Positions 32,105 through 49,499 of a DNA stretch of 64,000 nt are shown here, one piece after another. A model generated the notes under the pieces. It did no database searches, was not told the origin of the DNA, and saw nothing but the letters and a program-made list of their open reading frames with translations. The stretch covers positions 147,582 through 211,581 of the IMG/VR virus record IMGVR_UViG_3300037781_000042, one strand, 5' to 3'. Numbering within the stretch: the first letter of the stretch is position 1; the number at the start of each line of letters is the position of its first letter. Position numbers and translations under genes: made by a program. Origin of the DNA: a virus (lineage: Duplodnaviria > Caudoviricetes).

Positions 32105-33763
32105 TTAAAATGGTACCCCGGCTCTGTCGCAAGTACTTTCACTAAGTGTAATACCCGAATTTACTATAATTTTTTTACTATTTGGTAAAATTAACGTTTC
32201 TTCTGCAGTTCTAGGGTTGGACAATGAAAGTTCAGAAACATCTATATCGTTTATAACTATTTTGTTGTAAGAAAGATTTAACGATTCAAAATTACTATTC
32301 GAAAGATTTTCGGGTAAAGACTTAATATTATTTTCCATTAACAATATTCTTCTTGTCCATTGAGGAAGATTTTCTATTTTTTCAATTTCATTATCTACTA
32401 AATTTAGTAAATTCATTTTTTTAGGTAACCCTTTAATCTTTTTTATTTTACATTTACTTAAATTAATTTCTTTCATTTTTTCTGGAAATACTACTTCTAT
32501 TTCATTTATTTCATTAGAACTTCCGTTAAATATTTCCAAATGCTGAGTATTTAAATTTAAAAGTGTTTTAATTTTAGTATTTGAAACGTCTAATTTCCAA
32601 TATGAAATATTTGAAATATGTTTTAAATCGTCAATATCAGAATCATGTAAATCCAGATCATATATTAATCCGTTAGAAAAAGATTTCCAATTATCTATTT
32701 TTAAATTACCTCCGTATAAATATACAGAAGTTATATTTTCAATATTTAAATTTTCAAAATAAATTTCCCTTATAAATAAACTTCTACAAAAACAATTTTT
32801 AATTTTAATAGGGTAGTCTGTTGGAATATAATTATTATATCCAAATACATCTAATGTTCCATCATCATTAAATACTCTATAACTTCCTACTTCGTCAATT
32901 ATTTCTTTGTCGTATTTGCTATTTTGTTCTTTATATTTTTCATCAAAATATTTTTCTGAAAAATCTATATAAGATACTGCAAGTTTAATTATATCATGAA
33001 AATCTGCTCTATGTGGAGGATCTAAAGATTTCCATATTGCTATTTTTTTATAAATTTCTTCTAGATTTTCTTCAGTGTTTTTTGTATTTTCCCAATGTAT
33101 TACATAAACATTTGAATCTTCAACATCCCAAAATTTAATATATTGTTCTTCTCTACTAACTTCTGCTGCTAATTTATACAAATTACTATTTGAAGATGGA
33201 TCGTCTGGATGCCTATCTAAATATTTAAAATAGAAATAATATAAAACACAATTAGAATTTTGATATTGATTAAATCTGTTATCTTCTGTTCCTGCTGTAC
33301 ACCATTGAGTTCCGTACCCGTATTTTATAGAAGCAGTATCTGTGTGAGGAATAACTACTTGTATATCATCATTGTTTTCTAGAATAGTTTTTTTATATTT
33401 TCGAGTGTCATTTTTTTCTATAAATTTAATATTATATTTTTCAAATACTCGAACTAAAATAGTTCTAATTGTATCAGCAGAAAGTTGATTTATATCTTCT
33501 TTAATGTAACCCTTTTTTCTAAACCTATCCCAATGATAAATTAATCTTTCTACCCATTTTATTTTATATAGAGTTAAAAACTTTTCCGGGTAGTGGTCAT
33601 CTTCATTTATGTAAAAATAATAATTTTCATACATATCACACATAGCTTCAAGATACTTATAGCTTTTAGAAGGATCTAGTTCTTTTAGTTTATTGAAAAC
33701 TTCTTTAGAAACTTTTTTTGTTTTTAAATATTTTTCTCTAGCAGATTTTAAACTCATTGCCAA
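32105..33763 (-). CDS. family A protein (untagged), tandem copy 2
   Basis: MSLKSAREKY; SIKYGYGTQWCTAG; LRR; ends AGVPF. Confidence 0.75.
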   Translation of the reverse strand: MAMSLKSAREKYLKTKKVSKEVFNKLKELDPSKSYKYLEAMCDMYENYYFYINEDDHYPEKFLTLYKIKWVERLIYHWDRFRKKGYIKEDINQLSADTIRTILVRVFEKYNIKFIEKNDTRKYKKTILENNDDIQVVIPHTDTASIKYGYGTQWCTAGTEDNRFNQYQNSNCVLYYFYFKYLDRHPDDPSSNSNLYKLAAEVSREEQYIKFWDVEDSNVYVIHWENTKNTEENLEEIYKKIAIWKSLDPPHRADFHDIIKLAVSYIDFSEKYFDEKYKEQNSKYDKEIIDEVGSYRVFNDDGTLDVFGYNNYIPTDYPIKIKNCFCRSLFIREIYFENLNIENITSVYLYGGNLKIDNWKSFSNGLIYDLDLHDSDIDDLKHISNISYWKLDVSNTKIKTLLNLNTQHLEIFNGSSNEINEIEVVFPEKMKEINLSKCKIKKIKGLPKKMNLLNLVDNEIEKIENLPQWTRRILLMENNIKSLPENLSNSNFESLNLSYNKIVINDIDVSELSLSNPRTAEETLILPNSKKIIVNSGITLSESTCDRAGVPF

Positions 33764-35301
33764 GATCCTCTTTTATTATTTAACACTAAATCTTCAATAA
33801 AAATATCATTAATTTTAATTTTATTTCTGTGTAAATATAATCTATTAAACTGATGAGACATTAAATTTTCAGGAATTTCTTTAATTTCATTGTCATCTAA
33901 AAATATAGTATCAAATTTTAGTGGCAAATACTTTAAATCCTGAATATTATTATTTCGTAAATAAACTTCTCCTACATTATCAGGTAAATTTTTCAAAGAT
34001 TTTAAATTATTATTTTCTAATACAATCTCATCCATTTTATTTGGTAATTTACAATCTATTTTTTCTAAAGGTACTCCATTTGCGTGTATACTTAAAACAT
34101 TTTTACTAATAAGCTTTAAAGATTTTATTTGACTCCAATTCAAATTTATTTTAAAGTAAGAAATATCTTTTAAATGATATAAATTTTTAATTTTGCTATT
34201 AGTTAAATCAATATAATAAGTACTTCCTTTTGGAAAACTAGACCATTTATTTAAATCTAAATTGTTAGCTTCTATTTTATAACATTCAACGTTTTCAATA
34301 TAGTTAGATAAATCATTTATCTTCAAATTATTTAAATATAAACCATCTCCTATAAAATTCTTTATTTTTATACAATTTTCTCCTTTCTCTTCAATATATG
34401 AATTTAAATCACAATCTCCATAAAATTTATCTAATGTTCCATCATCATTGAAAATATATCCTCCATTATTAGGTAAAAGCGTTGCCAAATTATTTTGTTG
34501 AATATATTTTTTACTTAAAAAACGTCTATTGAAAGTTAAATATTTAATTATAGGAACATAAACTTTTTGGAATTCTAGAGAATAATGACGTTCAATAAAT
34601 TCTTGTAAATCCTTTCTAACCTCTTTTGCAGGTTCTTCTAAATCTATACTGTAACAAGTTAAAATTTTATTGTCATTAACATCCCAAAATCTAATTTCAT
34701 CCTCTTCAATATCTATATCTATAGCAGTTTTATAATAATTTGAATTTAATTCAGGATTATTAGGATGAGTATCTAAATCTTTAAAGTGAACGTAATAGAA
34801 AAAATGACCTGCGTTTTGATATTCATTGAATCTATTGGATCTTTTTGCAGCAGTACACCATCTAGTTCCTGATCCGTATTTTATAGAACCCATATCTGTA
34901 TGCGGAACTACAATTTTGAATTTATCGTTATCTACAATAACAGTTTCATGATATTTTCTAGTGTCCTTTTTTTCCATAAATTTAATATTAAATTCATATC
35001 CGGTCTCTAAAACTATCTCTACACATTCATTAAAATTTAATTGATTAATATCTTCTTTAATATAACCTTTTTTTCTAAATCTTTCCCAATGGTAGATAAT
35101 TTTACTTATAAATTTAATCCTATGATTCTGTTTAAATGCTTGTGGATAACCGAGATCTGGAGATTTAGTTAAATAGTAGTCACACATTGCTTCGATATAT
35201 TTAAACGTTTTAGAAGGATCATTCTTTTTTAATTCGTTGAAAACTTCTTCAGAAACTTCCCCTGTATCTAAATACTTTTTTCTTGCTGATTTTAAACTCA
35301 T
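33754..35301 (-). CDS. family A protein (untagged), tandem copy 1
   Basis: MSLKSARKKY; SIKYGSGTRWCTAA; LRR C-term. Confidence 0.75.
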   Translation of the reverse strand: MSLKSARKKYLDTGEVSEEVFNELKKNDPSKTFKYIEAMCDYYLTKSPDLGYPQAFKQNHRIKFISKIIYHWERFRKKGYIKEDINQLNFNECVEIVLETGYEFNIKFMEKKDTRKYHETVIVDNDKFKIVVPHTDMGSIKYGSGTRWCTAAKRSNRFNEYQNAGHFFYYVHFKDLDTHPNNPELNSNYYKTAIDIDIEEDEIRFWDVNDNKILTCYSIDLEEPAKEVRKDLQEFIERHYSLEFQKVYVPIIKYLTFNRRFLSKKYIQQNNLATLLPNNGGYIFNDDGTLDKFYGDCDLNSYIEEKGENCIKIKNFIGDGLYLNNLKINDLSNYIENVECYKIEANNLDLNKWSSFPKGSTYYIDLTNSKIKNLYHLKDISYFKINLNWSQIKSLKLISKNVLSIHANGVPLEKIDCKLPNKMDEIVLENNNLKSLKNLPDNVGEVYLRNNNIQDLKYLPLKFDTIFLDDNEIKEIPENLMSHQFNRLYLHRNKIKINDIFIEDLVLNNKRGSWQ

Positions 35302-35439: not shown

Positions 35440-37230
35440 TTAGCCACGGAATTGATCTAGGCCTTCAAGTTCTTTAAATTTATTTATAACTATATCTGCA
35501 TTTTTTTGATGTATTTCTGGTGAGATGTCTCCATAATCCTGTGATCCTTTAACACCTCCTTTAGAATTGTTATTTGTTTGATCTACTTTTTCTCCCGATT
35601 CGTATTCATCATCTATACTAAATTTTTTAAGTACATCATGTTTCTTAGATCCTTCTTCTATTCCATATATAAGTTGCATTAAAGCTAAGTAAGTAATCGA
35701 GCCTTCCCATATAGAAGCCATTAGAGCATAAGAAGCCCAAAATGTAGCAAATGCTAAAGTAACATTTGTAACAGGAACTTTTTTATCTGAAGCAGCGTTT
35801 GCCTTTAAAAATTTAGTAACAAACGGTCCTACTTGTTTAAGTAAATCTTCAAATGACCCTTTAGTTGTATACTTACCATCTTCATTTAAAACACCATATT
35901 CTAATTGTCTTAAAAATCCAATATCAGTTAAAAGAGAATCATTTCCTAAAATGATTTTACAATATTTTTGAAATTCTTGAATTCCAAAATTCGAAGCATC
36001 TAAATTATCAACTCTATTATTCCAATAAGAACGTATTACCTGATGTAACCATTTTCTATTGGTAATATTGTGAGTACTATTTGCTTGATTTAAATATTCT
36101 TCTGAAAGCATCCAAGAAGCCCATCCAATAGTATTCATCCCAGGAATAAAATTATCAAAGAAAGTATCATACCATCCTTCTGATTCTTCTGCTACCGACA
36201 TCTTATAAGGATTTTTTTCATCATCGTCATTTTCTAACATATACTTAGAAACATAAGCTTTCATAGAAGTATAATCTTCTATATCTTTTCTTCCTGAAAC
36301 ATTAAATCCTGCATATTGATCAAATACTTCATCTATCCAATCTTCTTTAGAATCTCCTGCTAAAATTTCATTCATCAAAGAAGATTCAGTTATAGACTCT
36401 CCTAATTTCTCTATTCCTTTCATGTACTCTTCTACATACTTAAGAGATTTTTGATCGTCTGCAATTCTTATGGTAAACTTTCCTTCTCCTTTAAAACTAT
36501 CATTTAATTTTCCTAAAAAAGAAAGTCCTGCTGTTTTAGAAGCAAATAAACCTCCAGCAACAGATTTATAAATATTTTTTATCTTTGTTTTACTAGTACT
36601 CTTTTTATGTTTTCCATTTTCCCAGATTTCTTTAATCTCGTACATGTCTGGATTTCCTCTAAGATAGAAGAATCCCCATACAACCGCGGCTGCCGCTAAT
36701 ACAGTTACCCCTGCAGCAGTTGTAAAGAAACTAAGAATGGCTTTTCCTCCCATCAATAAAGATCTTCCTATACCTGTCCAAAATCCTGCTCCCCATAAAC
36801 CAGTAGTAGTTCCAGCAGAAGTTGCAGCAACAGCAGATTTTACACCTAATGCAGAAAGAGCCTTTGTAAAAATACTTACTTTAGCTGCTCCTGCGGCTGC
36901 TGCAGTAGTTCCAACAGCAAAAGAAGATTTAGCAACAGCAGCGGCTCCTGCTTTCGATATAGCTGAACCAACTAACCATCCCCCTAATTTCTTAAAAGCA
37001 AATTTTGCTACCAAACCCATTCCTACATAAGTAGTTAATGTCTCAGCAACACTAGTAACCATACTTACATTTGCTGTAGCAGTTTCATCACCACCTATTT
37101 CATTTTCTACGTTTAAAGATTCTACATCTTCGTCCTCATAGATGAACCCAGAGGTGTTTGTTTCTTTAAGATGATTATTACTATGTCTTTTCGATTCTAA
37201 GTCCTTAGAATACTCCGTATAATTTTTCAT
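35440..37230 (-). CDS. Ala/Gly-rich multi-hydrophobic-segment protein, candidate virion ejection/translocon protein
   Basis: Long AAAG-rich hydrophobic region ending TVLAAAAVVWGFFYL, second hydrophobic segment near C-term; own promoter-like motif and terminator. Confidence 0.55.
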   Translation of the reverse strand: MKNYTEYSKDLESKRHSNNHLKETNTSGFIYEDEDVESLNVENEIGGDETATANVSMVTSVAETLTTYVGMGLVAKFAFKKLGGWLVGSAISKAGAAAVAKSSFAVGTTAAAAGAAKVSIFTKALSALGVKSAVAATSAGTTTGLWGAGFWTGIGRSLLMGGKAILSFFTTAAGVTVLAAAAVVWGFFYLRGNPDMYEIKEIWENGKHKKSTSKTKIKNIYKSVAGGLFASKTAGLSFLGKLNDSFKGEGKFTIRIADDQKSLKYVEEYMKGIEKLGESITESSLMNEILAGDSKEDWIDEVFDQYAGFNVSGRKDIEDYTSMKAYVSKYMLENDDDEKNPYKMSVAEESEGWYDTFFDNFIPGMNTIGWASWMLSEEYLNQANSTHNITNRKWLHQVIRSYWNNRVDNLDASNFGIQEFQKYCKIILGNDSLLTDIGFLRQLEYGVLNEDGKYTTKGSFEDLLKQVGPFVTKFLKANAASDKKVPVTNVTLAFATFWASYALMASIWEGSITYLALMQLIYGIEEGSKKHDVLKKFSIDDEYESGEKVDQTNNNSKGGVKGSQDYGDISPEIHQKNADIVINKFKELEGLDQFRG

Positions 37231-37255: not shown

Positions 37256-37263
37256 TATATATT
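37256..37263 (-). promoter_or_regulatory. AATATATA late-promoter-like motif
   Basis: Upstream of 37230, just past the gp46-fragment terminator. Confidence 0.4.
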
Positions 37264-37266
37264 CAC

Positions 37267-37291
37267 AAAAAAAGAGACCTTAAGTCTCTTT
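37267..37291 (-). terminator. rho-independent terminator overlapping the gp46-fragment stop codon
   Basis: AAAGAGAC-TTAAG-GTCTCTTT followed by a U run on - strand. Confidence 0.75.
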
Positions 37292-37499
37292 AATATTGTA
37301 TATTTGCATACTCTTTAAATTTCTTTTCTAATTCAGGATCATCAAACTTTATACTTATCATAGTATCTGGATGAACGCATTTCCCATGACCATTTTTTCC
37401 TGTCAGTAGGTTTAAAGATCCGGTTTTTTCGAATTTAATTGATTGTGAATTGTTCCCGTACGGTCCAATATTTCTAAATTCAAGTTCTTCTATTTGCAT
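37290..37499 (-). CDS. gp46: gp46/SbcC/Rad50 ATPase N-terminal fragment (40 aa) fused to split-intein N part
   Basis: MQIEELEFRNIGPYGN...LLTGKNGHGK (SbcC N-term + Walker A) then CVHPDTMISI; immediately downstream of gp47. Confidence 0.85.
   Translation of the reverse strand: MQIEELEFRNIGPYGNNSQSIKFEKTGSLNLLTGKNGHGKCVHPDTMISIKFDDPELEKKFKEYANIQY
37293..37379 (-). mobile_element. split intein N-fragment (29 aa)
   Basis: Cys directly after Walker A Lys; C-V-H-P-D-T-x-I matches intein block A; TAA stop follows. Confidence 0.75.
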
Positions 37500-38575: not shown

Positions 38576-39157
38576 TTAATCTGATAGTGGAATTAAAAAA
38601 TGAAACAATCCAACTACTAAAAACCCTTCAGAATGCATTTTTTCTTTACTAGGAAACCAAGTTGAAACAGTTCTTAAAGACAGTTTATCTACTTTATGTA
38701 AAATATCATAATACCATTTACCGTCTTTAGAAAAAGAAAAAGTATGTATTTTTCTTTCATTTGAAAGATTATCATAAACATAAACTTTGCGATCGTAAAC
38801 AACTACAAAACACTTTTCATTTAATTCATCAAAAATATTAATATAGTAATCAATAATATTATCATTTGGAATTTCATAGTTTATAAAATATCCTTCATCA
38901 AAGGAGGATAAACCTATTTTAAAAGAAGAAGGAACTTTTAGTAATAAATTTTCATTTCTTATAGAATGACTAATACACATTCTAAGATCACTAATAAATT
39001 TATCAGTGAATGTAGAAGACGGGTTTTCTTCATTAATTATCATTTGAGATAGTATGTCATCAGTTCTTAAAGGATATTCTATACTTTCCTTAAAAGATTT
39101 CCATAAAGTTTCTTCATTTTGATATACATCAAATTCTTTATTTGATTCTTTTTCCAT
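38576..39157 (-). CDS. hypothetical protein
   Basis: 193-aa ORF. Confidence 0.6.
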   Translation of the reverse strand: MEKESNKEFDVYQNEETLWKSFKESIEYPLRTDDILSQMIINEENPSSTFTDKFISDLRMCISHSIRNENLLLKVPSSFKIGLSSFDEGYFINYEIPNDNIIDYYINIFDELNEKCFVVVYDRKVYVYDNLSNERKIHTFSFSKDGKWYYDILHKVDKLSLRTVSTWFPSKEKMHSEGFLVVGLFHFLIPLSD

Positions 39158-39191: not shown

Positions 39192-40688
39192 TTAATAACA
39201 AGCAGTATAAAATATAGGAAGACCTTTCCCATTTTTAAAATTTTCAATAGCCATTTTTATTTCTTCGATGTCACCTATTCTTGTATTAGCAACATCTTTA
39301 ATAGTAATTTCTTTACTTGTATCCAAATTTGGATATTGTCTAGAAAAATCAGTATGATATAATTGCGCATCTAATATGAATTTATTAATATCTTTTGTTA
39401 ATTGTACTAGAGCAGGAAAATATTCGCTAATTGATGTTGCAACTGGAACAGCTCCTTGAGGACCATACATTTGTTTACCCCAATCTTTTAAAATATCTAT
39501 CTTATAAGGATATTTTTGTTGATTGTTTTTATTTTTAAAAAACGATTTAATTTTTTTATTAAACTCTTTTTCTTCGACAGAAACATACTTAAGTATAATT
39601 TCTAACACTTCACTTAAATATTGAACATAATCCTTAAGTTCATCAATTTGTTCTGCTAATAGGTCGTATTCTACAACTTGTTCTCCATATTCTGAATTTA
39701 TTTTACCTTTAAGCCATTGATAAGCATCTTTATCCCATTCTTTTAATTCCCTTCTAATAAATTGTCTTTCTTCTTCCGATAATAATTTAATAAAATATTT
39801 GTTAAAAGCTTCTTCTCTACTAGAATTAATTTCTTCTTCCGAAACTTCATTAGGAAATCCTTTAAATGAAACAAGTTTATTTCCATTTAAGAGTTTAGCA
39901 GATTCTGGAAGATAATCTTGATTCTGAAAACAATTATCTAGATGTTGTTCATAATCTTTGTCTGAACCTCCGTAAGATCCACACATTTGATAACCTGCTA
40001 TAGGGTGACCGCCAAATCTTTGAAAACCAGGCACATTCTCCGGTATTCCCTTTAAACAAAAAATTCTATTCGCATGGACATTATATTTACCCGTAACTAT
40101 TTTAGGACCATTAGTAAGAGTTAGTAATAAATTATGATGAGCTAAAAAATCTCCTTCTATAATAAGAGGACAATTTTTTAAATAAACAATATCATTTCTA
40201 GAAATATTAAACTCCCCAATAACAATTTGATTTTTCCATTTTTCTGGAATTTCAGTTAAATGCGATCCAGACAAATCAACATCACCAAAATGTAATTCAT
40301 ATCCTTGTTGAATATATGAACTATATTTTTCATAAAAATATACAGTATCTTGTGTGTCTTTAGCTTCTGCTTCTGCTCCTACACTTCCTCCTTCAATCAT
40401 AGGTTCTACATATTCCATAGATCCGTTAATTTCAGAATTTTTAAAAGAAAATAAATTAAATTTGGTACATTTTTTTATTTTTTCAAGTATTTCTTTTTGA
40501 TTAGAAATACCAAATTCATCTCCATTATAAAACTCTATATTAAATATAGATTTTCCGGAAGTTCTTGCAGCTCCTACAAATTTTACTATTAATCTATTTT
40601 CTGACGATTCACCAAATAATAATATAAACTTTTCTCCTATTCGAGAATCTTCTATTCTTTTATCGTCTAATTGTACTTTAATAATCAT
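39192..40688 (-). CDS. family C LRR-like protein with N-terminal extension
   Basis: VDLSGSHLTEIPEKWKNQIVIGEFNISRNDIVYLKNCPLIIEGDF; RRELKEWDKDAY module. Confidence 0.7.
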   Translation of the reverse strand: MIIKVQLDDKRIEDSRIGEKFILLFGESSENRLIVKFVGAARTSGKSIFNIEFYNGDEFGISNQKEILEKIKKCTKFNLFSFKNSEINGSMEYVEPMIEGGSVGAEAEAKDTQDTVYFYEKYSSYIQQGYELHFGDVDLSGSHLTEIPEKWKNQIVIGEFNISRNDIVYLKNCPLIIEGDFLAHHNLLLTLTNGPKIVTGKYNVHANRIFCLKGIPENVPGFQRFGGHPIAGYQMCGSYGGSDKDYEQHLDNCFQNQDYLPESAKLLNGNKLVSFKGFPNEVSEEEINSSREEAFNKYFIKLLSEEERQFIRRELKEWDKDAYQWLKGKINSEYGEQVVEYDLLAEQIDELKDYVQYLSEVLEIILKYVSVEEKEFNKKIKSFFKNKNNQQKYPYKIDILKDWGKQMYGPQGAVPVATSISEYFPALVQLTKDINKFILDAQLYHTDFSRQYPNLDTSKEITIKDVANTRIGDIEEIKMAIENFKNGKGLPIFYTACY

Positions 40689-40719
40689 ATCCTTTTTATT
40701 TTTAATTTAAAATTTCTTA

Positions 40720-41754
40720 TTATCCCCAGTTACCAAGCATTAGTTCACCATATTTTTCAAAAAACTTAATATGTTTTTTTATCTCATTAAAAGTCCCTAC
40801 CTGTAAATTAAGAACGTCTATTAGTTCAACTAATTTTCCAGTATTTAATTCTGGGTAAAGATTCATAAAAACTTGTAATTTATTACTATCAATTTTTTTA
40901 AGAAGATTGTTTATTTTATTTACTACAATAACTTCTTCTGGAAATTCTTTTTCATTTGGTAAAAGAGGAACGATTTTACTTTGATTTGCCATAGTTACAT
41001 TAAAAGTCTTTTTTCCGCCAAAAGGAAAATCGTTTTTATTTTGTATGGGAGCAGTTTTATTAAATATTTCTTGTAATCTTTTTTCTAAAGAATCTTCTTC
41101 TAAAGTTTCTTCATGTTTTTTAATTCTGTCAGAAAGATCAAAATGAAAATATCTAGTTAACTCTAAAATTCTTTTTTGTTCGTCCTTAGGAAGAGTTTTA
41201 AAACTATTATATGCTGTTTCAAATGAATGTCGAATTAATTCATTTCTTTCGTCCCCAGCAATAGAAGTACGTAACCTAATATCATTTCCCGCAGATGTAC
41301 TATAACTTATTCCTAATACTTTATTATTGAAATTATTTATCCAATCGGTTCCAATATGCTCTTTTTGCCATTCTCTTACATATTCCTCTGAACATGGACT
41401 CTGCGGTCCCATTTCAAAAGGATTATCATAAAAATGTAAATTCTGCCCTATTATACCCATTCCATAATTCGTAACTAAATTATTAGCGCCACACCAATAA
41501 TCAGTACCAACTATAATAGGTCCATTTTCTAAAGTAATTAAAAAATTATGATTAACATGAAAACTACCTAAAACGTATTTTGGACAATTATTAAGATTTT
41601 TTAAATAATTAAAAGACACGTCAAAATTTCCTATAATTAAAGCATCTTTATATTGTTCTGGTATTTCTGTTAATTTTTGTCTGCTTAAATCAACATTACC
41701 ATTAACAATTTTAATATTTTCTTCTGGAGATATTTGAAATCTTTTTTCACTCAT
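40720..41754 (-). CDS. family C LRR-like protein
   Basis: VDLSRQKLTEIPEQYKDALIIGNFDVSFNYLKNLNNCPKYVLGSF. Confidence 0.7.
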   Translation of the reverse strand: MSEKRFQISPEENIKIVNGNVDLSRQKLTEIPEQYKDALIIGNFDVSFNYLKNLNNCPKYVLGSFHVNHNFLITLENGPIIVGTDYWCGANNLVTNYGMGIIGQNLHFYDNPFEMGPQSPCSEEYVREWQKEHIGTDWINNFNNKVLGISYSTSAGNDIRLRTSIAGDERNELIRHSFETAYNSFKTLPKDEQKRILELTRYFHFDLSDRIKKHEETLEEDSLEKRLQEIFNKTAPIQNKNDFPFGGKKTFNVTMANQSKIVPLLPNEKEFPEEVIVVNKINNLLKKIDSNKLQVFMNLYPELNTGKLVELIDVLNLQVGTFNEIKKHIKFFEKYGELMLGNWG

Positions 41755-41779
41755 AAAGGACCTCTTTTTCTTTATTTTT

Positions 41780-42715
41780 TTATTTATTTTTTAATTCTTG
41801 TAATAAATTATCGAAAAAATTAATATTAAAATGATTCTCTAAATTTTGATAATATATTGGAGGAACGCTATTATAATTAAAAATTTTTCCGTTTTCTCTT
41901 TTAAGAAAATAAAGATCATATTGATAACTTTGAACATTACGACAGTTTTTACGCATACATTGATCAAATTCTTCGTCAGAAAGTTCCATTAATTTATCAT
42001 TTAGAACTTGAATAGAATTTTCATCACCAGAAATTTTTAATGGAGCGTTTTTTCCATCCCATATAAAAAAATATAACTCTTCTTTAGGAATATTAATATT
42101 CCAATATTTGTCATAATATTCATCGAATATTTTAAACGCTAAAGGATCCCAGTTTTCTAATAATTCTAAAATATAAGCTGTATTATTCATTGTTTGACGG
42201 AATAGATTTCTAATGGCGTTGTGATATTCAATTCCCGTTACATACTTAATACCTGAATGAGTATTTTTCAATGACAGTAAAGTATTACCAAAATTATAAG
42301 CTGCATTACCAACACTTTTTACATATTGTTTTTGTCTTCTGATAGTAAAATCATCAAATTGTTCTTTTGTTCTTTTTTCTGTATCAAAAATGGGATCATC
42401 AAAGCAACCGGTTAGACCGTGTCCAGTAAAACCGAATTCTCTATCAGGCCTATCTATTCCATAAAAAAGTAGAATATTATTACTACTTGCTAAGTAATCA
42501 CCCTTAACTATTCTCGGCCCGTCCTCACAGGTCAATAACATATTATGTGAGCAATTAAAATTTCCATTAATCAATTTTGGACTATTTTTAAGACTTTTAA
42601 TTTCATTTTTAGAAATATTAAAATCTCCATCAATAATAGAATCTTTATATTTTTCAGGTATTTCAGTCAATCGTTGTCTACTTAAATCTACACTGGCAAA
42701 TCTTTTTTCTTTCAT
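41780..42715 (-). CDS. family C LRR-like protein
   Basis: VDLSRQRLTEIPEKYKDSIIDGDFNISKNEIKSLKNSPKLINGNF; LLENWDPLAF. Confidence 0.7.
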   Translation of the reverse strand: MKEKRFASVDLSRQRLTEIPEKYKDSIIDGDFNISKNEIKSLKNSPKLINGNFNCSHNMLLTCEDGPRIVKGDYLASSNNILLFYGIDRPDREFGFTGHGLTGCFDDPIFDTEKRTKEQFDDFTIRRQKQYVKSVGNAAYNFGNTLLSLKNTHSGIKYVTGIEYHNAIRNLFRQTMNNTAYILELLENWDPLAFKIFDEYYDKYWNINIPKEELYFFIWDGKNAPLKISGDENSIQVLNDKLMELSDEEFDQCMRKNCRNVQSYQYDLYFLKRENGKIFNYNSVPPIYYQNLENHFNINFFDNLLQELKNK

Positions 42716-44936: not shown

Positions 44937-46505
44937 CTACTCTTCTTCTAAAGTTTCGTCCGAATCGTCAGTTACTACAGTTTCTTTTAAATGTGATTCA
45001 TTTTCTAATTCTTCTGCTAACATCTCTTCTACAGCATCATACTCAGCAAACATAAATACTTCTTGTAATCTAGAATCAATATAATCTAAATTTTCTTTAG
45101 TGAATATTTCTTTCGCGTATCTCCAAAATTCTTTTGTTTTTATTTGAATAGGTTCTCCGTCTGGTCCGTTTCCTATCACCCAACTTCTAGGAGCTTGAGA
45201 ACTAGAGTGTGGTTCAAATACAGTATTTCCAGTTTTTCTTCTAGCTATTTTACCTGTACCGGTTTCATATTCTTCATATTCATCTACTAATTTTCCAGGA
45301 GCTACTTTACAATTTTCCCAATCTAAATAATCTTGCAAACCTACATACTTATTCATACCTTTATAAAAAGATACGTGAAGAGTAATTGGAATTCCACCTT
45401 TTGTGAATCTTGCTTTTTCTTGTTTAGATTTGATAAGAACTCCAGTTTTCTTGATTTCACTATCAACCTTTTTAGTATCTACATCTTTATCGTCTTCTTT
45501 TTTCAATTGTCTAGTAGATAGCATTAATGAAATAGAAGCACCAAATTTAGCACCCGATCCACCTGAAATTATTTTAGTTGGAATATAAGAACCAATTGCT
45601 TCATAAACGTGAGAAGTAACTATCATAGGAACTCTTTTTACCCTTAATCTAGTAAGTAAAGTTCTAAACATAGCCTTTAATTCTTGTTGTTTAGTCATGT
45701 CTCTTTTATTATTTCCTGAAAGCAAATCTTCTGTTTCTTTATCAGAAGACAAGTTACCTAAAGAATCTAGAACAAACATATATTCACAAGAATTTTCTCC
45801 CGATATTGAATCTAAAATATTAAGCATAACCTGAGACGTTTGTCGAATTGTTTCAACGGGAACTATTACTACATTAGAAGTATCAACACCGATTCTTTCT
45901 AATGTATCATTATCCATTGCGCCTTCAGAATCAAACCAAAATATTTTTGAATCAAAAGATTTTTGAGCTTCTCTAGCAGCATTCATAGATAAAAATGTTT
46001 TACCTGTATTATGATTAGAAAATCCTTCACAAAAATATCTATGATTTTTATGATCTACTTCAAAATCATATACTATAGATTCATCTACTTTTTCGCATTT
46101 AATTAATGGAAGTTCTCCTTTTACCGTTAGAGCAATATCCCCAACTTTAAGTTCTGAAACTTTTTTCCATCCATATTCTTTTGTTTCTATCATGTGATCC
46201 AAAGAACACTTTAATGTTCCTATTTCAGTAGAAACTTCCCAAATATCTCTTTTACTTTTTTCATAGAATTCTATAATTTCTTGATAACCATCAAATGAAT
46301 TAATCATTATTTGTTTATCTCTATGCTTTTCTATTAAATCTTTTATTTTTATTTTTTTCGTGTTTTTTTCACAATGAATATTGAATACCGTATTATAATA
46401 TTCTTCAGAAGAATCGTTTTTTAATTTAGTATTTAACGAAGTATTAATTTCATTAATATCTTCATACCAACATAAAAGTTCTTTTAGTATATCATTTTTA
46501 TTCAT
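44937..46505 (-). CDS. uvsX: split-intein C part (aa 1-166) fused to UvsX/RecA C-terminal extein
   Basis: CSLDH (block B), VYDFEV (block F), HN|T junction, then TGKT, WFDSEGA, VLDSLGNL, IVTSHVY, SGGSG RecA motifs. Confidence 0.9.
   Translation of the reverse strand: MNKNDILKELLCWYEDINEINTSLNTKLKNDSSEEYYNTVFNIHCEKNTKKIKIKDLIEKHRDKQIMINSFDGYQEIIEFYEKSKRDIWEVSTEIGTLKCSLDHMIETKEYGWKKVSELKVGDIALTVKGELPLIKCEKVDESIVYDFEVDHKNHRYFCEGFSNHNTGKTFLSMNAAREAQKSFDSKIFWFDSEGAMDNDTLERIGVDTSNVVIVPVETIRQTSQVMLNILDSISGENSCEYMFVLDSLGNLSSDKETEDLLSGNNKRDMTKQQELKAMFRTLLTRLRVKRVPMIVTSHVYEAIGSYIPTKIISGGSGAKFGASISLMLSTRQLKKEDDKDVDTKKVDSEIKKTGVLIKSKQEKARFTKGGIPITLHVSFYKGMNKYVGLQDYLDWENCKVAPGKLVDEYEEYETGTGKIARRKTGNTVFEPHSSSQAPRSWVIGNGPDGEPIQIKTKEFWRYAKEIFTKENLDYIDSRLQEVFMFAEYDAVEEMLAEELENESHLKETVVTDDSDETLEEE
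46008..46505 (-). mobile_element. split intein C-fragment (long, contains blocks B, F, G)
   Basis: Ends ...EGFSNHN followed by Thr+1 at 46005-46007. Confidence 0.85.
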
Positions 46506-47913
46506 ATTTTTTCTCTATAATGTTAATAATTTTTTCTATAAATTCAGTTTCATTTTGATCTGAATAATATTCATAAACAACAAAACCTTTCTCTTCTGCA
46601 AGTTTTCTTTTTTCTAGATCTCTATTATAATTTTCTTCATAATTAGTTTTATTAAAAGCATGAACCCAATTTTCTTTAATTTCTTCATTCCATTCTGGGT
46701 TAGGATGAACATGTGTTCCGTGATATTCTACTAAAATATTTAATTCAGGGATAGTAAAATCATAAAAATTCATTTTATTATTTCCATAAATTCCATATTC
46801 ATCTTCTCCATATAAAAATGTTAGATTATATTTTTTCTTTTTAGAAGCAAAATAGTGTTCGATTTCTTTAAACATTTTATATGACTCTTTACTTGAACCA
46901 TACTTAAAATTAAAAGATTTAATACTCGATCGCAATGAATTCATTCTATTTTCTTGTCTTACAATAAACTTTTCTGTTCCTTCTCTTTCACCATATTTTT
47001 CTACATGATATTCTAAAGAAGCATTCGCATTCGCTTTTTTAATTTTGTTTTTAGTATGCTCGTCTAAAAGTTCCATAGAATTTTGCCATTTTTTCTGTCT
47101 TTCATTAAAAATTCTATTTCCTTCTTTTTCGCCATATTTTTCTATACAATATTTTAAAGAAAAAGTAGACTGTCTTTCTTTTAATTTTTCAATAGCTTCT
47201 TCTTCTGAAAAACCTTTAGCTTCATAAAATTCTTTAAATACATTCATTCCTTTTTTATACTCCTTTGGATTAGTATATTTCTTAGAATGCCTTTTTAAAG
47301 ATCTTTTTCTTTGCGTTTTAAAAATTTCTTCTTTGGCTTCTTCTTCTGAAAAACCTCTTTCTAAATAATATTCTAAATGAAGATTATTATTTTTTTCAAT
47401 ATAAGATTTCCATTTTTTCTCTATCTCTTTTTCTGAAAAGCCTTCTTTTTTCCATTTTTTCTTTTTTCTTTTTTTCACTGACCATTCGTAACCGGTTTTT
47501 CTTCTATTGTCTAAAGATTTTTTAGAATTTTTAGCTTGTATTTTTGAAATTTCTTCTTTAGCTTCTTCTTCTGAAAAACCTTTTTTTATCCAAAATTCCA
47601 CACAAAATCTAGATCTACTTTTATCTAATATTTTTTTATATTTCTTTGCTAATAATTCAGCTTCTTTTTTAGAATAGTTTCTTTCAATCCAATATTCTAA
47701 ATGATGTTTCTTTAAATCTATATTTAAAGGTAAAAGTATCTTAATAGAATTTTTTCTTGAATATGTAGAATATTTTTCTTTATATTTTAAGTAGAAATTT
47801 TCAAAATTAACTTTTTCTAAATCACTAAATATTTTGTTTATCTCAATGATGTAGTCTTCTTTTGACAATATTTCTTTTTGCGCAAATATATTTTTTAGTT
47901 CCAGGCTTGTCAT
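46498..47913 (-). CDS. free-standing homing endonuclease, Vsr-like (EDxHD / PD-(D/E)xK) with helical repeats
   Basis: C-term FYDFTIPELNILVEYHGTHVHP; repeats (F/Y)xxxKGFSEEEA x4-5 and EKYGExEG x2; sits between the two uvsX halves. Confidence 0.75.
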   Translation of the reverse strand: MTSLELKNIFAQKEILSKEDYIIEINKIFSDLEKVNFENFYLKYKEKYSTYSRKNSIKILLPLNIDLKKHHLEYWIERNYSKKEAELLAKKYKKILDKSRSRFCVEFWIKKGFSEEEAKEEISKIQAKNSKKSLDNRRKTGYEWSVKKRKKKKWKKEGFSEKEIEKKWKSYIEKNNNLHLEYYLERGFSEEEAKEEIFKTQRKRSLKRHSKKYTNPKEYKKGMNVFKEFYEAKGFSEEEAIEKLKERQSTFSLKYCIEKYGEKEGNRIFNERQKKWQNSMELLDEHTKNKIKKANANASLEYHVEKYGEREGTEKFIVRQENRMNSLRSSIKSFNFKYGSSKESYKMFKEIEHYFASKKKKYNLTFLYGEDEYGIYGNNKMNFYDFTIPELNILVEYHGTHVHPNPEWNEEIKENWVHAFNKTNYEENYNRDLEKRKLAEEKGFVVYEYYSDQNETEFIEKIINIIEKKYE

Positions 47914-47957
47914 AATGTTTTATTTTTATATATCACATTACAGGTGAACCTGGAACT
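47897..47957 (-). promoter_or_regulatory. RNA hairpin occluding the endonuclease start codon, with GATATATA motif in the loop
   Basis: AGTTCCAGG/CCTGGAACT 9-bp perfect stem plus TAATGT/ACATTA upper stem that includes the A of ATG (47913); GATATATA at 47927-47934. Confidence 0.6.
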
Positions 47958-47964
47958 GGAAATT

Positions 47965-48255
47965 CTATAACTTTGTTAAATCTTTAAAATTTTCAGATTT
48001 ACCTATATAAACTTCTATTTCTTGATCAGGGTGTAAACAACCCGGATCCCCTGCCAGAAGTAACACTCTCCCTTCAGGAAGGCCTCTATAAATAGACCCT
48101 GTCATTTGAGCATTAAGTAGATAATTACCCATATCTACCCAATTATTAATTTTAAAAGTATCATCTTCTGAAACTACATTTGCAGAAGGAACTATATCTT
48201 GTACTTTATTTAAAATGGATGCAAAATCCATTGATTCATTTTTCTTTTTAGCCAT
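47965..48255 (-). CDS. uvsX: UvsX/RecA N-terminal extein (72 aa) fused to split-intein N part
   Basis: MGNYLLNAQMTG...GLPEGRVLLLAGDPG (RecA N-term, first half of Walker A) then CLHPDQEIEVY. Confidence 0.9.
   Translation of the reverse strand: MAKKKNESMDFASILNKVQDIVPSANVVSEDDTFKINNWVDMGNYLLNAQMTGSIYRGLPEGRVLLLAGDPGCLHPDQEIEVYIGKSENFKDLTKL
47968..48039 (-). mobile_element. split intein N-fragment (24 aa)
   Basis: CLHPDQEIEVYIGKSENFKDLTKL*; intein block A. Confidence 0.8.
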
Positions 48256-48275: not shown

Positions 48276-49499
48276 TTAAAATAGTGGAGATGATGTAAAT
48301 AAGTTATTGTCAATTGGCGGTTTATCTAAAGCTCGAATATAAGCATTTAAAGGAGCTAGAAAACTTTTTTCAAATTGAGCTTCTTTGTCTATTTCAGGAG
48401 CAAATTGATAAGGGAACATATTTGGTAAATAAGCAAATCTATCACATTTATCAATTGGAATTTCAGCGCAATACCATTTAACAGAATCTTTAGATTTTAT
48501 CATTGGATATTTTTGTTTATACTGAGATTCGGTAGTATTTAATAGATGATTATAATATGCTGCTCCTTTAGCTTGATAAGTTGCTCCTTTGTTAAAGATT
48601 AAATCTTTTCCATCTGAAACAATATGTTTATCGTAATCGTTTACAGTTACTGTTTTTGCTATTACATCAATGTCTTGTAAGAAGTATTCTTCTTTAATTG
48701 TTTTTACCTTTGATAATAGTTCAGGCATATTTATTTTACCCCTTTCACTATTTAGAATATCTACAATAGTTTTTTCTAAAATGTTTTTTACATATTTAGG
48801 GGTAGATGATTGAACTACTTCTCCTCCAGTAAAATTAAATTTTTTGTTTTTCTTATAGAATAATCCATTTTTTCCACCTTCTGTCCACGAAACATCTAGA
48901 ACATATTTTTTAGGAGCTGCTAGAATACCTGATCTACAGATTTTTTCAAGTTCTAAATTATGTAAATTTTCTACGCCAAAATGAGCTGCATAATTATCAA
49001 AAAATTTCTTTAGATAAGAATTTAATCTATTATTCCAAATATCTAGAATAAAATGAGTTCCTCCAAATTCTTTATCTTCAGAATATTTTTCAGGAAGAGT
49101 ACAATTTTCAAATACTTCATCTAATGAAAAATATACTGAATCTGTATCACAATAAATAGCTACATTTTTTATTGGAGGTTGAACATCTGAAACTTCCATA
49201 ATTTCATGAAGTTTAGTATCTTTAGGCCATACTTCTTGAAAATATTTATTGAACATTTTTTCTGTAGATTGTGTAATATGTCTTCCCATCGCAGTAACAG
49301 TAGATGCAATTGCATAACTGAAGAAATGGAAATAAGGACTTGCAAAAACACCATACATTGAATTAATAGAGATCTTTATAGACATCTGATTTGCATCTAA
49401 AATGGCATATTCAGTTTCATACTCATTTAAAAGTTCTTTTAATTCAGATGTACTTAAATTGCTTAGATATTCGTCTGTTATTTTTTCTACTGGAGTCAT
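48276..49499 (-). CDS. gp43: family B DNA polymerase, C-terminal subunit only (gp43B-like)
   Basis: KISINSMYG (motif B), YCDTDS (motif C), KKYVL; exonuclease domain and motif A absent. Confidence 0.85.
   Translation of the reverse strand: MTPVEKITDEYLSNLSTSELKELLNEYETEYAILDANQMSIKISINSMYGVFASPYFHFFSYAIASTVTAMGRHITQSTEKMFNKYFQEVWPKDTKLHEIMEVSDVQPPIKNVAIYCDTDSVYFSLDEVFENCTLPEKYSEDKEFGGTHFILDIWNNRLNSYLKKFFDNYAAHFGVENLHNLELEKICRSGILAAPKKYVLDVSWTEGGKNGLFYKKNKKFNFTGGEVVQSSTPKYVKNILEKTIVDILNSERGKINMPELLSKVKTIKEEYFLQDIDVIAKTVTVNDYDKHIVSDGKDLIFNKGATYQAKGAAYYNHLLNTTESQYKQKYPMIKSKDSVKWYCAEIPIDKCDRFAYLPNMFPYQFAPEIDKEAQFEKSFLAPLNAYIRALDKPPIDNNLFTSSPLF

Follow-up and report, generated by a model that had tools for sequence, protein, structure and literature searches.

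The split inteins described from phages sit in adjacent fractured genes, in which a conserved motif of a DNA-metabolism gene is the site of the interruption (Dassa, London, Stoddard, Schueler-Furman and Pietrokovski 2009, PMC2677866). The break seems to be a side effect of the insertion of a homing endonuclease into the intein. The hosts reported there are gp41, IMPDH, DnaE, NrdA, NrdJ, ligase, and terminase, along with a locus in a protein of unknown function. Atypically split inteins have short N-terminal parts (IntN), measuring 25 aa in AceL-TerL, 37 aa in GOS-TerL, 30 aa in Cat-TerL, 16 aa in VidaL, and 15 aa in PolB16 (PMC13014065, PMC11766414). Trans-splicing between the products of separate loci is known for two essential DNA enzymes, the cyanobacterial DnaE (Wu, Hu and Liu 1998, as cited in PMC13014065) and the Nanoarchaeum PolB, each of which is encoded in two halves.

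The stretch analyzed here, referred to as the window, comprises 64,000 nucleotides and forms the end of a linear IMG/VR contig of 211,581 bp. The contig has 27% G+C, and CheckV estimates its completeness at 82%. A 69-aa ORF of the window joins the start of gp46 to the start of an intein, and no published description of an intein of this kind in gp46/Rad50 was found. We consider this ORF to be probably the working N-half of a trans-spliced gp46 (a Rad50/SbcC-type ATPase) with its partner at a distant locus. The features of the locus and of other parts of the window are collected in Table 1.

Table 1. Coordinates of the gp46 fragment, its neighbors, and further features of the window
Feature	Position	Strand	Remarks
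gp47 / Mre11-SbcD nuclease gene, 356 aa	37501..38571	-	Pfam Metallophos E 3.3e-6, residues 1-191; directly upstream of the 69-aa ORF
69-aa ORF	37290..37499	-	starts one base past the gp47 stop
gp46/Rad50 N-extein, residues 1-40	37380..37499	-	last residues are Walker A GKNGHGK; family and custom-profile matches
29-aa IntN from Cys1	37293..37379	-	atypical split after the first helix; homology to contiguous gp46 inteins
TAA stop of the 69-aa ORF	37290..37292	-	
Intrinsic-terminator-like hairpin and T-run	37264..37291 (stem 37291-37271)	-	9 pairs, loop of 3, then TTTT; overlaps the stop codon
AATATATA, recurrent promoter-like motif	37256..37263	-	26 nt upstream of the next gene's ATG
Unrelated 596-aa gene	35440..37230	-	Ala/Gly-rich hydrophobic N-half; in the place of the endonuclease and IntC-gp46C genes of relatives
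193-aa ORF	38576..39157	-	just upstream of gp47; faint LAGLIDADG_1 match, E 0.063
Paralogous genes	33754..35301 and 39192..42715	-	common N-terminal '...LTEIPE.YK...' and leucine-rich-repeat-like runs
uvsX/recA fractured gene	44937..48255	-	complete, adjacent
UvsX-N, 96 aa, and 24-aa IntN	47965..48255	-	UvsX-N ends ...AGDPG; IntN starts CLHPDQ
Endonuclease of the uvsX locus, 471 aa	46498..47913	-	repeated GFSEEEA motifs
IntC-UvsX-C, 522 aa	44937..46505	-	about 166 aa of IntC ending SNHN, then TGKT and UvsX-C
Family B DNA polymerase, C-half only	48276..49499	-	PF00136 positions 133-347

The identity of the fragment was assessed from its neighbor and from its own two parts. The gp47 gene matched by tblastn the 'recombination endonuclease' gp47 genes of T4-like phages at 29-35% identity, and the 69-aa ORF adjoins it. 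Residues 1-40 of the ORF matched AAA_23 (E 7e-4) and phrog_77 SbcC (E 7.5e-4); the AAA_23 score of 20.6 bits lies under the 27-bit Pfam cut-off because only 35 residues can be aligned. A custom profile was made from two reference gp46 sequences and the gp46 proteins of related phages, 48 of them distinct; run against the 778 stop-to-stop frames of the whole contig, it matched the N-extein at E 1.6e-15 over profile positions 1-49. In length and motif the N-extein is the same as the N-termini of 77 intact gp46 genes, in which S or T follows the lysine. As in the gp46/Rad50 N-lobe, N-terminal beta-strands lead to G-x-x-G-x-G-K at about residue 34-41; here the Walker A motif occupies residues 34-40, and the usual S/T is replaced by the intein Cys1 (Cys41). 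The IntN (residues 41-69) reads CVHPDTMISIKFDDPELEKKFKEYANIQY, with the TAA next. The initial annotation had placed just 40 aa of gp46 behind gp47, ending at the Walker A lysine, and on this the ORF, AAA_23, phrog_77, and the custom profile agree. It had also described a short 29-aa IntN fused to this extein, which is borne out by the Cys1 nucleophile directly after the extein, the block A pattern, and the homology to contiguous gp46 inteins.

We found that this insertion site is used by a large intein family. Searching an IntC profile against 1.84 billion representative proteins returned 153 clusters at E <= 1e-10, mostly gp46 C-halves that begin with an IntC, together with some full-length gp46 proteins carrying a contiguous intein at the same site. 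Across the family, the IntC is about 125-130 aa long, contains blocks B, F, and G, ends in SHN, and is fused to about 520 aa of gp46 from the Walker A Ser/Thr onward. Three loci (the IMG/VR contig L006, and L088 and L090) show the complete order of gp47, gp46N-IntN, a free-standing Vsr/DUF559-like endonuclease gene, and IntC-gp46C. Their N-fragments pass from GKNGHGK into CVMPDT at the junction, and their C-half proteins of 643-647 aa open with about 130 residues of blocks B, F, and G ending GIRSHN, followed by S-T and the rest of gp46. In six further loci (L091, L119, L121, L130, L133, and L110), the gp46 halves are adjacent without an endonuclease gene, at spacings from an overlap to a gap of about 550 bp. 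Contiguous mini-inteins were observed at the same Walker A Lys/Ser site of gp46 in other phages (L120, L145/L146, and L176; P0017 and P0075), and thus split and unsplit forms of one family coexist. Among GenBank phages, matches were found at the level of the N-extein only.

The fragment of the window aligned with the contiguous forms P0075 (E 3e-17) and P0017 (E 6e-14) across both the extein and the intein start, and its end coincides with the start of the IntC in the split forms. A docking model placed the fragment on residues 63-205 of the P0075 intein, a non-cognate partner, with an ipSAE of 0.79 compared to 0.00 for the best control. The contacts involve fragment residues 38-65, at least 80% of them recur between runs, and the partner pLDDT is at least 58. 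The mark that was passed is reached by 51 of 78 solved complexes and by 2 of 108 mismatched pairs, and the modeled pass may reflect likeness to solved split inteins. It was noted that the window also holds a complete adjacent fractured gene of this general type at uvsX/recA (Table 1).

The 3' boundary of the fragment was then compared with what had been read from the letters alone, namely a TAA with a terminator overlapping it and an unrelated next gene with a promoter-like motif of its own. The terminator was found as a 9-bp hairpin with a T-run, and within 1.7 kb there are two terminator-like sites, which are one palindrome read on both strands, compared to 0.2 expected from shuffles. The promoter-like motif was both supported and sharpened: AATATATA is the top enriched 8-mer upstream of genes in the 211.6-kb contig, and it is a candidate promoter element of the phage because 25 gene starts have it no more than 55 nt upstream, compared to 1.0 expected. 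The contig holds 37 copies, and the copy ahead of the 596-aa gene is the sole one within window positions 30-52 kb. The 8-mer is rare overall, with these 37 copies set against about 133 expected from base composition.

The 596-aa gene belongs to no family that we could recognize, with no Pfam or PHROG match and no similarity to nucleases or to gp46, including by the custom gp46 profile. It is syntenic and 52% identical in the relative L004. A scan of the viral contig collection with this gene found no relatives. Read-through or frameshifting from the fragment into this gene was considered and rejected, with the protein being unrelated and both the terminator and the promoter-like motif lying between. 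On the other side of gp47, the 193-aa ORF with its faint LAGLIDADG_1 match may be a decayed homing endonuclease, judged by that match. Several paralogous genes flank the region (Table 1), and these gave no family matches.

We sought the missing C-half across all available sequence. The contig was searched with Pfam AAA_23, SMC_N, and SbcC_Walker_B, with TIGR01443 and phrog_77, by phmmer and tblastn with two reference gp46 sequences, and with the custom gp46 profile, the L006 IntC-gp46C, and the IntC profiles A2 and A3. These searches matched the N-fragment alone, plus the uvsX IntC by the intein profiles. No gp46C or cognate gp46-type IntC was found in the 64-kb window or in the whole 211,581-bp contig, and the earlier statement that no ORF of the window joins an IntC to SbcC therefore stands against family models, reference gp46 sequences, and custom and IntC profiles alike. 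Nor were the zinc-hook coiled coil, signature motif, Walker B, and D-loop of gp46 found in the window, elsewhere in the 211.6-kb contig, or in the 35 kb of sequence read beyond its ends.

Public sequence collections were also examined. A degenerate DNA pattern combining the IntC end with the extein NR.NK motif recovered 6 of 6 test loci and returned 22 metagenome loci, none of them from this phage's samples. The same holds for 150 profile matches and 120 word-search matches, none of which could be tied to those samples, and for 20 cluster representatives of the IntC family, where no source matched this phage. Candidate partners (P0040, P0253, and P0012/13/11) were rejected as belonging to adjacent loci of other phages.

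The orphan layout was found to recur among relatives. L004 and L005, two diverged relatives, also have the fragment as an orphan, and unrelated genes occupy the 2.9 and 4.7 kb downstream of it. In all of the 20 remaining distinct split loci with enough flanking sequence, IntC-gp46C follows the N-fragment at a distance of no more than 1.3 kb, whether or not an endonuclease gene intervenes. The unlinked layout is therefore without precedent in the gp46 intein family among the loci assessed, and the orphan layout is a trait of this lineage, since L004 and L005 share it while the 20 others are adjacent. An N-half, a free-standing homing endonuclease, and a C-half in one locus were not found together for gp46 in the window. 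The claim that the layout departs from the adjacent fractured type thus holds when it is set against those 20 loci and the uvsX gene of the same window.

The extent of the genome bears directly on these negative results. In one JGI assembly, a 193-kb contig reaches 57.6 kb past the window end and a 56.6-kb contig reaches 49 kb past the start of the IMG/VR contig. With extensions at both ends, and with the parts read sharing no sequence, the genome measures no less than about 318 kb, which is considerably larger than the CheckV value of 82% implies. The portions of the extensions that were read (18.1 and 17.2 kb) encode a ligase, a polynucleotide kinase, an RNA ligase, a topoisomerase II, a dNMP kinase, and others, and contain no gp46C or IntC. 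Exact 30-mers from the extensions were absent from the viral contig collection. The sequencing runs listed as containing the stretch are pond-metagenome DNA runs, with no RNA run among them. The family B DNA polymerase of the window is present as its C-half only, and the exonuclease/N-half (PF03104) was found nowhere in the 211.6-kb contig; parts of essential replication genes therefore lie outside the contig.

Selection on the fragment was assessed among its homologues. Five homologues of 67-72 aa, with pairwise identities of 57-70%, keep the frame and share an invariant GKNGHGKCVHPDT; the invariant positions run from GKNGHGK through CVHPDT at the junction and into an I-x-I-x-F pattern (CVHPDT.I.I.F). 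The protein database holds four homologues, all open and 62-70% identical to the fragment of the window, with 57% between the most distant pair compared. For two relatives with DNA, the dN/dS of the fragment was 0.17-0.27 compared to 0.2-0.5 for gp47 in the same genome pairs, values that are rough because dS is near saturation. Against L005, the fragment is 62% identical and gp47 is 50% identical. This pattern fits a protein in use rather than a decaying one.

From the purifying selection on the fragment, the intact gp47, and a contig that also lacks the polymerase N-half, we infer a distant IntC-gp46C gene. The fragment, expressed from the gp47 operon that closes at the predicted hairpin terminator, supplies the first 40 residues of gp46, as far as the Walker A lysine, together with the 29-aa IntN of an atypically split intein. 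The phage's own IntC-gp46C gene would lie in the remaining genome (at least 71 kb beyond the parts read) as a separate transcription unit; its distance from the fragment would exceed 44 kb in one direction and 200 kb in the other. Once the two gp46 halves had associated, splicing by Cys1 and the +1 Ser/Thr would regenerate GKNGHGK-S/T and with it a complete gp46, which could pair with gp47. The ancestor was probably an adjacent fractured gene, whose halves were then separated by a rearrangement where the replication module meets the AATATATA-led unit.

An extension of this reading is that the halves are held in different transcription units deliberately, with the N-half beside gp47 in the replication operon and the C-half under another class of promoter at a distance exceeding 44 kb. 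The arrival of the second half would then act as a post-translational gate on the assembly of an active Mre11-Rad50 nuclease, and the gene would be the first unlinked trans-spliced gene of a phage. We regard this extension as doubtful, and the post-translational timing switch that it contains as speculation.

A different reading is that the fragment is a relic, with the endonuclease and IntC-gp46C genes deleted or replaced at a module boundary in a phage that has no gp46 or has an uninterrupted one elsewhere. The empty search of 211.6 kb and a further 35 kb, the unrelated gene with its own promoter-like motif directly downstream, and the adjacency of every other assessed split locus would all be expected of such a remnant. 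However, stops or frameshifts would also be expected over the divergence observed, and instead five lineages, as little as 57% identical, all preserve the frame, the length, Cys1, and block A without change, with a dN/dS equal to or below that of gp47. The genome has moreover been read only in part. In T4, gp47 works with gp46 as a Rad50/Mre11 pair, and the gp47 of this phage is intact, conserved, and in need of a Rad50 partner. A relic is thus an unlikely account of the locus.

It is also conceivable that the fragment is a small protein with a use of its own and no cognate C-half, for example binding gp47 or pairing its IntN with the uvsX IntC. Its conservation as a 67-72-aa protein would agree with this, as would the related IntC in the same window (A3 profile E 1.2e-10) and the similarity of the gp46 and uvsX IntN sequences, which have C-[VL]-H-P-D in common. 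However, gp46N spliced onto UvsX-C would yield GKNGHGK-TGKT, a junction without evident use, and the best-conserved parts are the Walker A motif and the intein's catalytic start, a pattern that fits splicing into gp46 better than a binding peptide. We judge an independent use to be very improbable. A chimeric join past the N-fragment that hides an adjacent partner might be suspected of any metagenome contig, but it can be set aside with near certainty because the order of gp47, the 69-aa ORF, and the 596-aa gene is found on 13 contigs from several pond samples, across independent samples and assemblers, and the same order occurs in a 52-76% diverged relative.

Neither the splicing mechanism nor the atypical split nor the fractured-gene origin is new (PMC2677866, PMC13014065, PMC11766414); the novelty of the window is a conserved gp46 N-half without a neighboring partner. 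If the separate-locus reading is true, the phage keeps an essential repair ATPase as two unlinked genes that rely on trans-splicing, which opens the question of whether the separation serves regulation. Should a closed genome lack the partner, the case would be a well-preserved relic and an ordinary one. The 29-aa Cys1 IntN is in addition a member of a large natural family of short IntN sequences with more than 100 sequence clusters, and such inteins are wanted for peptide-based protein labeling.

The window resembles T4 in that one operon carries gp47 and then the start of gp46, with the Walker A motif at residues 34-40, but its locus encodes just 40 residues of gp46. Compared to the fractured genes (PMC2677866), the likeness is complete for the gp46 loci of L006, L088, and L090 and for the uvsX gene of the window, which have the full layout with a Vsr-like endonuclease between the halves. 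The gp46 locus of the window differs in having neither an endonuclease nor a C-half downstream and, in their place, an unrelated gene with its own promoter-like motif. Its split site is also atypical with a short IntN, and that study does not list gp46/Rad50 as a host protein.

In type of split, the window intein resembles AceL-TerL and GOS-TerL, with which it shares a split after the first helix, a short Cys1 IntN (29 aa here), and a phage or metagenomic source. As in other atypically split inteins, blocks B, F, and G all lie in the IntC, which is about 125 aa long in the gp46 family. The likeness to the TerL inteins is one of split type, whereas the host here is gp46/Rad50 at the junction of the Walker A Lys and the Ser/Thr rather than a terminase. 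In layout, the nearest systems are the cyanobacterial DnaE and the Nanoarchaeum PolB, whose separate loci correspond to the arrangement that we infer for the window gp46. Those systems reside in cellular genomes, have canonical splits with a long IntN and a short IntC, and are known in both halves, whereas the window gp46 is found in a phage genome with an atypical split and with its N-half alone located. Confirmation of a partner at a distant locus would make this gp46 a phage counterpart of the unlinked cyanobacterial DnaE halves.
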